Source: Escherichia coli
GTDB taxonomy: Bacteria; Pseudomonadota; Gammaproteobacteria; Enterobacterales; Enterobacteriaceae
Reading direction: 5' to 3' (one strand)
Length of the DNA: 64,000 nt
Assembly: GCF_029227855.1 (NCBI RefSeq)
Contig: NZ_CP074357.1
Below, piece by piece: positions 24,001-36,000 of the stretch (positions are counted from its first letter, which is position 1; each line of letters starts with the position of its first letter). A program made the position numbers.

Positions 24001-27000
24001 ACGTACAGCTTGGTTTCGCCGAGGTCGCGGATGCGCGGCGCGAAGCGGAAGCCTAGCAGGTGCATCAGGGCAAAGACGTGATCGGTGAAGCCGGCCGTGT
24101 CGGTGTAGTGCTCCTCGATCCGCAGGTCGGACTCGTGGTACAGCAGGCCGTCGAGCACATAGGTGGAATCGCGGACGCCGACATTCACCACGCGGGTGCT
24201 GAACGGCGCGTACTGGTCGGAGATATGGGTATAGAACAGCCGTCCCGGCTCGCTACCGTACTTCGGGTTGACGTGCCCGGTGCTCTCGCCCCGGCCACCC
24301 GCGCGGAAGCGCTGGCCATCGGAGGATGAGGTCGTGCCGTCGCCCCAGTGGGCGGCAAAGGCGTGGCGATACTGGTGGTTGACCAGCTCGGCCAAGGCCG
24401 CCGAATAGGTTTCGTCGCGGATGTGCCAGGCTTGCAGCCAGGACAGCTTGGCGTAGGTCAGGCCGGGGCTCGACTCGGCCATCTTGGTCAGCCCGAGGTT
24501 GATCGCATCACCGAGGATTGCGGACAGCAGCAACGTCCTGTCTTTGGCCTCGGCCCCGTCCTTCAAGTGGGTGAAGTGGCGGCTGAAGCCCGTCCAGTCG
24601 TCCACGTCCATCAGCAGTTCGGTGATCTTGATGCGCGGCAGTAACTGGCTGGTTTGGTCGATCAGCGCCTGCGCCCGATCCGGCACCGCCGCATCCAGCG
24701 GGGTGATTTTCAGCCCTGACTCGGTGAGGATGGCATCGGGCAGCTCGTTGTCCTTGGCCAGGCGGGTGACGGTGGCCAACTGCTCGTCCAGCAGCTGCAA
24801 ACGCTCTTCCAGGTACTGGTCGCTGTTCGGGTTGATCGCCAGGGGCAGGGCCTGCTCGCGCTTGAGTGCGGCGAACTTCTCGGCCGGCAGCAGGTAGTCG
24901 TCGAAGTGGCACTGTTGCAAATAGTCGGTGGTGATAAACTTATCATCCCCTTTTGCTGATGGAGCTGCACATGAACCCATTCAAAGGCCGGCATTTTCAG
25001 CGTGACATCATTCTGTGGGCCGTACGCTGGTACTGCAAATACGGCATCAGTTACCGTGAGCTGCAGGAGATGCTGGCTGAACGCGGAGTGAATGTCGATC
25101 ACTCCACGATTTACCGCTGGGTTCAGCGTTATGCGCCTGAAATGGAAAAACGGCTGCGCTGGTACTGGCGTAACCCTTCCGATCTTTGCCCGTGGCACAT
25201 GGATGAAACCTACGTGAAGGTCAATGGCCGCTGGGCGTATCTGTACCGGGCCGTCGACAGCCGGGGCCGCACTGTCGATTTTTATCTCTCCTCCCGTCGT
25301 AACAGCAAAGCTGCATACCGGTTTCTGGGTAAAATCCTCAACAACGTGAAGAAGTGGCAGATCCCGCGATTCATCAACACGGATAAAGCGCCCGCCTATG
25401 GTCGCGCGCTTGCTCTGCTCAAACGCGAAGGCCGGTGCCCGTCTGACGTTGAACACCGACAGATTAAGTACCGGAACAACGTGATTGAATGCGATCATGG
25501 CAAACTGAAACGGATAATCGGCGCCACGCTGGGATTTAAATCCATGAAGACGGCTTACGCCACCATCAAAGGTATTGAGGTGATGCGTGCACTACGCAAA
25601 GGCCAGGCCTCAGCATTTTATTATGGTGATCCCCTGGGCGAAATGCGCCTGGTAAGCAGAGTTTTTGAAATGTAAGGCCTTTGAATAAGACAAAAGGCTG
25701 CCTCATCGCTAACTTTGCAACAGTGCCGATTCAAGCAAGCCAACTTGTCGTCAAAATCGGTGTTGCAAAAACGGGAGTGACCATAGATTCCGTTTTCCAA
25801 GCGGACCCCGTGCTGTGTGGAAATCCGCCCACCTTGCCGGGCGCCGGTGCCGTGTGGAAATCCGCCCACCTTGCCGGGCGCCGGTGCCGTGTGGAAATCC
25901 ACCCACCTTGCCGGGCGCCGGTGCCGTGTGGGAATCCGCCCACCTTGCCGGGCGCCGGTGCTGTGTGGAAATTCGCCCATCTTCATGACAAAAATTTGTC
26001 AAATGACAGGCTCATGTGTGCTGATTTATGTCAGACGGGATTTTGCTTATCAATTATTGAGAACAGAAATTTTCCTGAATCATCAATACTATACTTAGCA
26101 AGTAAAGGTGTTTTCTCATTTATCTGCTTGAGAGCAGGATCAAGGAAAGATCGTTTCAACTCTGCCAAGTTCTTCTGTTGGGATTCCGGCAAAAGGAAAC
26201 GGTCATTTAACCAAGCATGAGTAGTAACCCATAAGCCTGAAGATTTGAATTGAGCAAGACTTTCATAAAGGCGGATCGTCCGTGGATTTCGAAGACTGCC
26301 ACAATCGCGGAGCGAGTAGGTGGTGAACTGGTTCGTCAGGCCGTAAATGTACCGCAGGAGTTTATGGTTAAATTCGATTTCCCAGATACCACGAGCTGAT
26401 CGGCTGCCAGCCTCTGTTAGCCAGGGGCGCGCGACGCAGTCAAAACTCCCTTCTTTCGGGTAAAAGATTACCGCAGAACGGCTTAACTCAAACACGCCTT
26501 CTTTAACATCCTTGATAGCCTGGTTACGGCTTACCTGAAAAATTTGCTGATAGTCAGCCACCTTTACTTTGAAAGTAGAGTCACCGAGTACAGCCATCTC
26601 ATCATCATCTTCGCTTACTGAAGCTGTGAAATACGTCTGCATAAGACATAACCAGAGAACGCGCTTTGCTTTTAGCGAGAGGTAGTAAGCAGCTTCGGTA
26701 AGCTCGTTAGACGGCACTGTTGCAAAGTTAGCGATGAGGCAGCCTTTTGTCTTATTCAAAGGCCTTACATTTCAAAAACTCTGCTTACCAGGCGCATTTC
26801 GCCCAGGGGATCACCATAATAAAATGCTGAGGCCTGGCCTTTGCGTAGTGCACGCATCACCTCAATACCTTTGATGGTGGCGTAAGCCGTCTTCATGGAT
26901 TTAAATCCCAGCGTGGCGTTGATTATCCGTTTCAGTTTGCCATGATCGCATTCAATCACGTTGTTCCGGTACTTAATCTGTCGGTGTTCAACGTCAGACG

Positions 27001-33000: not shown

Positions 33001-36000
33001 TGCAAGGCCAGGCGAAAAAGCATGATCTGCACGGCTTCCAGCACGATCTTGGCGACGCCCTGGGCCTCGGCCGCCAGGTCGGATAGATCGACCACGCCAG
33101 GGACGGCCAGGCGTGCGCCTTTGGCCTGTATCGAGGCCACCAGGCGCTCGGCCTCGGGCAAAGGTAGGCGGCTGATGCGGTCGATCTTCTCGGCAATGAC
33201 CACCTCGCCGGGCTGTAGGTCGCCGATCATGCGCAGCAGCTCAGGCCGGTCGGCGCGTGCGCCGGATGCCTTCTCACGGTAGATGCCGGCGACGTAGTAG
33301 CCGGCGGCCTTCGCGGCCGTAGTGATCGCCTCTTGGCGTTCCAAGTCCTGCGCGTCGGTGCTGACGCGCAGATAGACCCGCGCCACCATCGGCGCGGCTA
33401 CTGGCTTCGTCCTGCGCATACTTGCGGGCTCCTTTGGGCATACGCAAAGTGTCCGGTCATGCTACCCCCGGCCAAAAAGGCCGTCATGCGATTTATCTTG
33501 GCCGGGTCGTTATTGGCGGGTCTAAATGGCCGCTCCGTGGATCTCATCGCCAGAAATGGCGATGCGAGATCCAGGGCAGGGCGGCCGCCATCGTCAGACC
33601 TGGCGATGGTCGACGCCGGCGCGCATCGTCGGATGTGGCGATGCGAGCTCGAGGTCGGTGGCCACCGCCGGCGACCTGGTGCCATCGTCGGCAATGGCGA
33701 TGCTGCAGCTCGACGTGCGCGGCCTGGTCGTCTCGGCATCGTCGGATGCGGCGATGCTCGAGCGAGGCGAAAAAAAACCGCCTCGGGGTGTCCGAGGCGG
33801 CAAGTCTGCATGCGGTTCAGGGAGGAAGAAACCGCGCCGGCGATCAGGGAGGAAAACCGCGCGGCCTGATGTGCAGCTCGGCCACTTTAGCCGGATTTTT
33901 CGACTTATCCGATGCGAGCGGCCCGCCGTGGGCGCTGCTCGATCTGCTGTTGCTTTTTCTCGACGTGCTTCTGCTCCTGGTGCTGCTGCTCGTCGCGCGG
34001 CACTGTTGCAAAGTTAGCGATGAGGCAGCCTTTTGTCTTATTCAAAGGCCTTACATTTCAAAAACTCTGCTTACCAGGCGCATTTCGCCCAGGGGATCAC
34101 CATAATAAAATGCTGAGGCCTGGCCTTTGCGTAGTGCACGCATCACCTCAATACCTTTGATGGTGGCGTAAGCCGTCTTCATGGATTTAAATCCCAGCGT
34201 GGCGCCGATTATCCGTTTCAGTTTGCCATGATCGCATTCAATCACGTTGTTCCGGTACTTAATCTGTCGGTGTTCAACGTCAGACGGGCACCGGCCTTCG
34301 CGTTTGAGCAGAGCAAGCGCGCGACCATAGGCGGGCGCTTTATCCGTGTTGATGAATCGCGGGATCTGCCACTTCTTCACGTTGTTGAGGATTTTACCCA
34401 GAAACCGGTATGCAGCTTTGCTGTTACGACGGGAGGAGAGATAAAAATCGACAGTGCGGCCCCGGCTGTCGACGGCCCGGTACAGATACGCCCAGCGGCC
34501 ATTGACCTTCACGTAGGTTTCATCCATGTGCCACGGGCAAAGATCGGAAGGGTTACGCCAGTACCAGCGCAGCCGTTTTTCCATTTCAGGCGCATAACGC
34601 TGAACCCAGCGGTAAATCGTGGAGTGATCGACATTCACTCCGCGTTCAGCCAGCATCTCCTGCAGCTCACGGTAACTGATGCCGTATTTGCAGTACCAGC
34701 GTACGGCCCACAGAATGATGTCACGCTGAAAATGCCGGCCTTTGAATGGGTTCATGTGCAGCTCCATCAGCAAAAGGGGATGATAAGTTTATCACCACCG
34801 ACTATTTGCAACAGTGCCCTTGAATCTATCCGGCGTCTGAATGGGATTTTATTCCCGCGCCTTGATGAGTTCCGCGCCTGATGAACCTCCAGAAAATATA
34901 CGGCTTCAATGAGCCTTTCCGTTTTACAGGTTCCTCAACAGGCCGGTGGGCCGTTAGTATCATCAATATCAGTATTCGCAAAACCAGATCAGTAATTCTT
35001 TAAACCGGTGTATTTCTGCCGTTATGCTACATAAGTTTGCTGTCGTGCCGTTAGGGCCCAGGCTATTCTGGCCAGCTTGTTTGCCAGAGCACAAGTGACG
35101 ACAAAGTTGCTTTTCCGGCACAGTAAATCCCTGACCCAATCGGCCAATTTGCCAGACTGGTGTTCCAGTTTTTGTATGAATACCCTGGCACATTGAACCA
35201 ACAAAGTTCGGATCTTTTTATTACCTCGCTTACTAATTCCCAGCAATGTCGTCCTACCTCCCGTGCTGTACTGCCGAGGTACAAGCCCTGTTGCCGCCGC
35301 AAAGTCACGGCTGCTGGCGTACTGCTTCCCGTCGCCAATCTCAGTTGAAATAGTACTCGCTGTCAGTGTTCCGACGCAGGGAATGCTCAGCAAGCGCTGT
35401 CCAACCTCATCTTCGTCCAACTTTCGTTTCAACTGGGATTCCAAATCTTTAATCTGCTCAACAAGATAGTGATAATGCTGTTGTAATTTCAGCAATAACT
35501 GGCTGAGGTAAAGAGGCAAACTACTGTCCTCAAGAATGGTACTCAGTCGGCTAATAACGGCAGCTCCTCGGGGAACGCTAATGCCAAATTCCAGCAGAAA
35601 AGCATGCATTTGATTGGTTGTTTTTACCTTATCCTGAACCAGGGATTCACGGACACGATGCAGAGCCCGCATTGCCTGCTGAGATTCCGTTCTGGGCTGC
35701 ACAAAACGCATAGACGGACGCGATGCAGCTTCACAAATAGCTTCGGCGTCGACAAAGTCGTTTTTATTGCTTTTAACGAACGGGCGGACAAATTGTGGTG
35801 ATATCAGCTTTGGGGAATGCCCCAACTCTTCCAACTTGCGTGCCATAAAGTGAGAACCGCCACAGGCTTCCATTGCGATGGTTGTAGCGGGGCATGTCGC
35901 CAAAAATTCGATCAACTTTGGCCGGGTAAATTTTTTACGGTAAACAGCCTTCCCGCGACGATCCTGGCAATGAATATGGAAAGAGTTTTTACCCAGATCG

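Follow-up and report, generated by a model that had tools for sequence, protein, structure and literature searches.

A probable IS26-mediated inversion that split IS4321 in the multiresistance region of an IncHI2 plasmid from Escherichia coli

The signature of an intramolecular inversion made by the insertion sequence IS26 through the trans pathway was defined by He et al. (2015, mBio 6:e00762-15; PMC4471558), who gave pKPN-068, pKPC-727, pENT-576 and pKpQIL-234 as examples and argued for a one-step origin over insertion followed by inversion. We describe here a comparable arrangement in a 64,000-nucleotide stretch of E. coli DNA (contig NZ_CP074357.1 of assembly GCF_029227855.1), which is called the window below. 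As in the published cases, there are two IS26 copies in inverse orientation, a disrupted element whose halves are apart and inverted, and an ancestor with a single IS26 at the site of origin that can be deduced. The mechanism would be the same, but the disrupted element is IS4321 rather than ISSwi1, it is located in an IncN1 fragment embedded in an IncHI2 multiresistance region, and the inverted segment contains a third IS26, which encodes a G184N variant of the transposase Tnp26.

The pOYZ4/MRCP IncHI2 plasmids (Front Microbiol 2022, PMC9019673) share with the window IS26, the variant IS26-v1, aph(3')-Ia, delta-Tn1721, IS4321 and floR, and both pOYZ4 and pCFSA1096 carry one of the junctions discussed here, in which IS26 is followed by CTTGAATC and the rest of IS4321. 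That study based a 40-kb inversion on an imperfect pair (8/7 bp), and it reported target duplications for none of its IS26 copies. The flank CGTCGCGC, which served there as evidence for this different inversion, is also found in the window, at the right inverted repeat (IRR) of IS26 copy 4. Unlike the pair behind the 40-kb inversion, the CTTGAATC pair is perfect, and it is visible only in plasmids that have kept the IncN fragment, such as that of the window. An IncN1 segment consisting of delta-repA, iterons, gshB and delta-IS1294 has been described in mcr-1 IncHI2/ST3 plasmids, for example pHN6DS2, and in pASSD2-MCR1 together with IS4321 (PMC6288184). It has in common with the window the IS26-truncated repA, the 37-bp iterons and gshB, and the IS4321 between iterons and gshB in pASSD2-MCR1 represents the target in its un-hit state. 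In the window, by contrast, the segment is cut inside IS4321, and its repA-iteron part is inverted and shifted by 8.3 kb.

The cointegrates and pseudo-compound transposons made by IS26 (Harmer and Hall; PMC4894685) involve the same element and the same 8-bp length of duplication. A cointegrate has direct copies and direct internal repeats, whereas this pattern is absent from the window, where the copies are inverted and the repeats are reverse-complementary, one being internal and the other external. The floR module of the window, bounded by direct IS26 copies 3 and 4, does resemble the insertion of a translocatable unit. A literature search with the 8-mers and IS26 gave nothing relevant, and no paper was found that describes the CTTGAATC pair. 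The mechanism and its signature are textbook material; there is no new mechanism here, and the locus is at most an unrecorded instance, in public sequences, of a known kind.

The window contains six complete copies of IS26 and one remnant, with 13 matches to the IS26 inverted repeats. They are given below together with the two 8-mers, a plus copy being one with tnp26 on the plus strand and the left inverted repeat (IRL) at its left.

850-1669, plus strand: IS26 copy 1, complete, 820 bp, taken as the reference copy
24908-25727, plus strand: IS26 copy 2, of standard sequence (820 bp), with the new junction at its IRR
25728-25735: target-site duplication, first copy, GATTCAAG, the reverse complement of the target; abuts the IRR of copy 2, inside the bracketed segment
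26713-27532, minus strand: IS26 copy 3, IS26-v1, inside the inverted segment
33999-34818, minus strand: IS26 copy 4, standard sequence, identical to copy 2, new junction at its IRL
34819-34826: target-site duplication, second copy, CTTGAATC, positions 53-60 of IS4321; abuts the IRL of copy 4, outside the segment
38084-38384: IS26 remnant, IRL end, 301 bp, with left flank GATTTTTA
45006-45825, plus strand: IS26 copy 5, complete
47006-47825, minus strand: IS26 copy 6, complete

The copies have the expected features of IS26, namely a length of 820 bp, 14-bp terminal inverted repeats (GGCACTGTTGCAAA) and a gene for a Tnp26 of about 234 amino acids, the open reading frame starting at nucleotide 64 and spanning 705 nucleotides. 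Copies 2 and 4 (820 bp each) are 100% complementary and identical to copy 1, and the five complete copies other than copy 3 are mutually identical. Copy 3 is IS26-v1, with GG>AA at nucleotides 613-614, leading to the G184N substitution in Tnp26, and a silent G>A at nucleotide 459; in vitro work on G184N is cited in PMC9019673. The identity of the standard copies 2 and 4, with the variant between them, fits a history in which these two are the products of one transposition and copy 3 is a passenger.

It had been predicted that the 8 bp right of copy 2 are the exact reverse complement of the 8 bp right of copy 4, that these two copies are oppositely oriented, and that no other pair of IS26 flanks in the window matches. 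All of this is confirmed by the sequence. CTTGAATC is the exact reverse complement of GATTCAAG, copy 2 is on the plus and copy 4 on the minus strand, and of the 78 pairs that can be formed from the 13 IS26-end flanks this is the only one to match, directly or inverted, at 6 or more of 8 positions. In a simulation using 13 random 8-mers from the window, the probability of any 8/8 pair, direct or inverted, was P = 0.005, a value in which the IRR/IRL geometry is not yet counted. That geometry is correct, because in a single transposition the target is cut with a stagger, and one of its sides is joined to an IRL and the other to an IRR. A simple insertion would have direct 8-bp repeats at its two ends, which none of the IS26 copies in the window has.

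The 8-bp match is backed by a stronger fact, which is that two halves of one known element end at IS26, in opposite orientation and 9.1 kb apart:

25728-25787, minus strand: IS4321 positions 1-60, detached from the remainder of IS4321, in inverted orientation
34819-36092, minus strand: IS4321 positions 53-1326 (1,274 bp), with the transposase gene at 35022-36026 on the minus strand

The first 60 bp right of copy 2 are the terminal 60 bp of IS4321, and the target therefore lies inside IS4321. When the reverse complement of 25728-25787 is joined to 34827-36092, the result is an element of 1,326 bp that agrees from end to end, at 100% identity, with the intact copies of pEC_G4W1 and pQnrB4_020042. 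The two pieces in the window overlap by exactly positions 53-60, that is, by the duplicated 8-mer. The rebuilt element has the character of its class (IS110 family, IS1111 group; about 1.3 kb, at a fixed site in a Tn21-type inverted repeat). It is bounded by GGGGTCCGCTTGGAAAACGGAA and AAATATCCCACGCTAAG, which we take to be similar to the halves of a Tn21-type inverted repeat of 38 bp, where IS4321 usually inserts. The contents predicted for the inverted segment (IncN fragment, copy 3, delta-tet(A), floR module and recombinase) are all there, except that the DNA next to copy 2 is IS4321 and not IncN. Under every explanation considered below, apart from chance or artefact, the 8-mers are a genuine target duplication from one transposition of IS26 into IS4321.

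The sequences on either side of the two copies are as follows.

23357-24907, minus strand: flank A, a truncated Tn1721/TnAs1-type tnpA cut by copy 2, with flank GTCGAAGT at the IRL of copy 2
25788-26712, minus strand: IncN1 fragment, with the inverted-repeat-like site occupied by IS4321, the iterons and the 3' part of repA
25810-25983: IncN iterons, 4.7 repeats of 37 bp
27533-33998, minus strand: floR resistance module, inverted, ending in flank B
End of the floR module: flank B, with CGTCGCGC at the IRR of copy 4, then a small open reading frame and the recombinase gene
36093-38083, minus strand: continuation of the IncN1 segment, with the other half of the inverted-repeat-like site and gshB (36444-37880), reaching as far as the 301-bp remnant of IS26

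An ancestor was reconstructed by joining window positions 1-25727, the reverse complement of 25728-33998, and 34827 onward (21 kb aligned). The rebuilt empty site, comprising 985 bp of IncN and 1,000 bp of IS4321 (1,985 bp), occurs uninterrupted in 13 plasmids at 96.6% identity or above, and in five of them at 100%. With a 500-bp probe over the reconstructed site, 58 PLSDB records cover it, with IncN iterons running into intact IS4321; thousands of plasmid matches annotated IS4321/IS5075 start at probe positions 169-181, where the element has its boundary. The second predicted junction, in which flank A, IS26 and flank B are contiguous (2,020 bp), is matched in one piece, at 99.9-100%, by at least nine plasmids of several replicon types. 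One of these, the IncHI2 plasmid pD208, is collinear with the ancestor over 9,205 bp at 99.97%, through backbone, tet(A), tetR, flank A, IS26, flank B and ISCR2, and its IS26 flanks, read directly, are GTCGAAGT and GCGCGACG. Plasmid p92944-TEM has the same contiguous A-IS26-B order, and is collinear over 8,864 bp, as far as the boundary with IS26-v1. The remaining half of the ancestor, running from IS26-v1 through delta-repA, iterons, IS4321 and gshB to ramA, is present in pEC_G4W1 at 100% over 6,792 bp.

Four features of an inversion product are found: inverse IS26 copies, repeats at an IRR and an IRL, a restored site and a rebuilt donor junction. The intramolecular inversion originally proposed is supported by the rebuilt site, the rebuilt IS4321 and the old junction, all found in relatives. 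The suggestion that related plasmids should hold the un-inverted arrangement held for both predicted junction states, but not for a complete ancestor in one molecule, a finding that would be supportive and is not strictly defining. Two other junctions were not made by the event. The junction between flank A, whose fragment is annotated as a TnAs1-family transposase in relatives, and the IRL of copy 2 is old. Copy 3 cuts repA at 26712 (relatives annotate the gene as 'replication initiation protein'), and the resulting junction of its IRR with delta-repA (GTCTAACG) also occurs in plasmids with the empty site, and is therefore older than the inversion.

The segment was probably inverted by one-step, intramolecular, replicative transposition of IS26 in trans, which would depend on Tnp26 and not on RecA. 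The ancestor would have had the order backbone, Tn1721 remnant (A), IS26, module of recombinase, ISCR2, floR, lysR and delta-tet(A), IS26-v1, delta-repA, iterons, IS4321, gshB. The IS26 between flank A and the module would have followed the 'trans' pathway, attacking the opposite strand of the same IncHI2 plasmid at CTTGAATC, which lies 52 bp in from the end of IS4321. Replication through the strand-transfer intermediate would have duplicated IS26 to give copies 2 and 4 in opposite orientation, and duplicated the 8-bp target as reverse-complementary copies at the IRR of copy 2 and the IRL of copy 4. The 8,271 bp between the copies (25728-33998) would have been inverted, which would split IS4321 into 60 bp and 1,274 bp, move the repA-iteron part 8.3 kb away and carry copy 3 along inside the segment. 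This single step is the most economical history, and the structure needs no further event. The duplication, its geometry and the split IS4321 are seen in the sequence, and so are the empty site and the A-IS26-B junction in relatives; a single step within one molecule is what we infer. One step is favoured because flanks A and B together restore an old junction that is widespread, and because there is no simple-insertion isomer among the plasmids with the copy 2 junction: the spacing expected of it (junctions about 0.8 kb apart, on opposite strands) occurs in none of the nine records with the copy 2 junction for which the IS4321-side junction is also listed.

Positions 20000-50828 of the window are 100% identical to CP063719.1 (pVPS18EC0801-1, E. 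coli, veal, USA). NZ_CP071712.1 (pL1, E. coli, human source) is 100% identical to positions 14869-43000 and 99.97% identical to positions 1-20068. Because these plasmids were deposited independently, the arrangement is no quirk of assembly and is not private to the isolate. The junction of IS26 with GATTCAAG and the iterons is found in about 13 PLSDB plasmids, and that of IS26 with CTTGAATC and IS4321 in about 190, mostly of 230-310 kb and from Escherichia, Salmonella, Enterobacter and Klebsiella. This wide spread implies that the event is old, not recent in the isolate, and has been passed down within one lineage of IncHI2 plasmids found in several enterobacterial genera, with one junction later eroded by IS26.

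A number of observations weigh against the one-step history. Flank B lies across the IS26 from CTTGAATC-IS4321 in only 51 of the roughly 190 plasmids with that junction. IS26 flanks are freely exchanged in this plasmid family, and the junction of IRR with flank B has at least five different partners on the IRL side. The full ancestor, in which delta-tet(A), IS26-v1, delta-repA, iterons and intact IS4321 are joined, is absent from 5,426 complete E. coli genomes searched with a 2,605-bp probe, only its two halves being found, separately. It is also absent from the six plasmids inspected out of the 13 PLSDB plasmids with the long empty site, where ISEcp1, sil genes, IncHI2 backbone or F-plasmid genes lie left of the IS26. 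Finally, pXJW9B277-HI2-N (NZ_CP068042.1) is an isomer of the window whose sole difference is an inverted 10-kb segment between copies 4 and 5 (IS4321-gshB-ramA-AAA ATPase-M14; window 34819-45005), such that its two copies of CTTGAATC are direct repeats at directly oriented IS26 copies, as in a cointegrate. The shuffling of flanks and the existence of inversion isomers, both here and for the aph(3')-Ia (aphA1) segment, make routes of several steps realistic, and the one-step and two-step routes are inseparable from sequence alone.

In the two-step route, IS26 would have entered IS4321 with direct 8-bp repeats, by cointegration and resolution, and RecA-dependent inversion with the A-IS26-B copy would have followed. 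The end structure would be identical to that observed, and flips between inverse IS26 copies are known in the family, in the aphA1 segment between copies 5 and 6 and in the copy 4-copy 5 segment of pXJW9B277-HI2-N. The route nevertheless takes three events instead of one, the intermediate spacing is missing from all nine informative records, and He et al. (2015) considered one step more likely for such patterns; we regard it as unlikely. A quite improbable alternative starts from a cointegrate, in which an IncHI2 plasmid with the order A-IS26-aphA1 joined the IS4321 of another circle carrying IncN, floR and gshB-ramA, followed by a flip between copies 4 and 5. The pattern of pXJW9B277-HI2-N is exactly that of such a cointegrate, with iterons-CTTGAATC joined to one IS26 and CTTGAATC-IS4321 to another in direct orientation. 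However, the donor junction that it predicts, A-IS26-aphA1, has no exact contiguous match, the best being three pieces over about 3.5 kb, in contrast to the exact A-IS26-B matches of the one-step model. The 19-kb target circle that has to be postulated would have only a truncated repA, and gshB-ramA has the orientation of the window relative to the backbone in all four of the other junction-bearing (j2) relatives inspected besides pXJW9B277-HI2-N (L011, L013, L014, L018). It would also be a coincidence that the copies bearing the duplication hold the halves of a widespread old junction.

The IS26-v1 beside delta-repA could instead have transposed in trans into IS4321, 985 bp away, giving a local inversion of the IncN fragment alone, with the floR unit inserted later and the left copy exchanged by recombination. 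IS26-v1 does adjoin delta-repA in empty-site plasmids, and direct IS26 copies (3 and 4) stand on both sides of the floR module, as they would after insertion of a translocatable unit. But two IS26-v1 products are then expected, whereas copies 2 and 4 are standard and copy 3 alone is the variant; at least three events are needed, no plasmid has both junctions about 1.8 kb apart, and it is left unexplained why A and B rebuild a known junction. We consider this highly improbable. A chance match, or a segment mis-oriented in assembly, is scarcely credible. It is true that short-read assembly cannot orient a segment between identical 820-bp inverted repeats, and that the 8-mer has one further occurrence in the window, at 14551. 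Chance and assembly error were both rejected on the simulated probability, on the identity with pL1 and pVPS18EC0801-1, and on the fact that the halves of a single IS4321 overlap in just these 8-mers. Assembly error, named at the outset as something that would overturn the prediction, was not borne out, as the arrangement is 100% identical over 22-31 kb in these two plasmids and its geometry recurs in pRWS292.s2; even a mis-oriented segment would leave two IS26 copies and a duplicated target. Because the neighbouring aphA1 and gshB-ramA segments appear flipped in relatives, we also entertained the idea that the 8.3-kb floR/IncN block between copies 2 and 4 is not a frozen scar and is still flipping in populations by recombination between IS26 copies, which we think very unlikely. 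If it were so, single assemblies would hide a mixture of orientations, with possible effects on the expression of flanking genes or on incompatibility mediated by the IncN iterons.

Other arrangements occur among relatives. Plasmids pPK5074-MCR1 and pCFSA1096 have no IncN fragment, and an IS26 directly connects their CTTGAATC-IS4321 with the end of an lnu(F)-aadA integron (flank CCGTAGAA). The copy 1 junctions of the window are present in both but point the other way with respect to IS4321-gshB, so that another large inversion or deletion bounded by IS26 is implied. Plasmid pR18.0877_278k has strB-delta-strA joined to IS26-v1 in place of copy 2 and the IncN fragment, while pRWS292.s2 keeps the geometry of the window, with tet(X4)-ISCR2 inserted in the floR module and another flank outside copy 2. 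In NZ_CP039440.1 and NZ_ON960335.1, junctions of the copy 2 and copy 4 types lie on opposite strands, 59-67 kb apart, which suggests further large inversions after the original event.

The genes of the floR module were located from the annotation of a relative's locus (L003, 100% identity) by adding 19,999 to its coordinates:

27533-27783: delta-tet(A), 251 bp, beside IS26-v1
28078-28383: lysR fragment
28414-29625: floR
29842-30726: DUF3363 gene
30757-32250: ISCR2/ISVsa3
32461-32685: hypothetical gene
32682-33419: recombinase gene

All the genes involved are well-annotated resistance or transposition genes, with 99-100% identity to database records. The 251-bp delta-tet(A) is a perfect inverted duplicate of 21132-21382, inside the complete tet(A) at 21107-22303, and this duplication implies that the ancestor carried two Tn1721 tet modules, like pD208. 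A 300-bp direct repeat with 99% identity (27770-28069 and 32054-32353), which is probably duplicated ISCR2-end sequence, flanks the lysR-floR-DUF3363-ISCR2 unit, and tet(X4)-ISCR2 units are inserted at this unit in pD208 and pRWS292.s2. There are three directly oriented fragments of Tn1721/TnAs1-type tnpA, of unequal lengths, at 17853-19419, 23341-24907 (cut by copy 2) and 44140-45005 (cut by copy 5, the 600 bp to the left of which are of this type). They are potential substrates for the recombination between delta-Tn1721 copies reported in PMC9019673.

The aph(3')-Ia segment (45826-47005) lies between the inverse copies 5 and 6, with an IRR facing it on both sides, and differs in this from Tn4352, where the IS26 copies are direct repeats. 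It occurs in both orientations, with its junctions kept, when pPK5074-MCR1 and pCFSA1096 are compared, which fits recombination between the inverted copies 5 and 6. Copy 1 (850-1669) lies between lnu(F) and a truncated mef(B)-sul3 region. The 301-bp remnant at 38084-38384 stops abruptly and is followed by the DUF1158-ramA region; p22-1, pQnrB4_020042 and pEC012-1 have a complete IS26 in its place.

No coding sequence appears to have been hit by the inversion apart from the end of IS4321. The 52 bp of unique sequence at that end are now distant and inverted, and IS4321 should be immobile. The IncN iterons and delta-repA are now enclosed by two inverted IS26 copies and separated from gshB by 8.3 kb, and the floR module, between the direct copies 3 and 4, could leave as a translocatable unit.

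The locus illustrates cleanly how a target duplication of IS26 can be confirmed by the splitting of IS4321. For the globally spread IncHI2 plasmids carrying floR, tet(A) and aph(3')-Ia, relatives of which carry mcr-1, tet(X4) and blaCTX-M, the event helps mainly to date and order one rearrangement of their multiresistance region. The junction of IS26 with CTTGAATC-IS4321 could serve as a lineage marker for these plasmids, while its rarer partner marks the subset that has retained the IncN iteron fragment.

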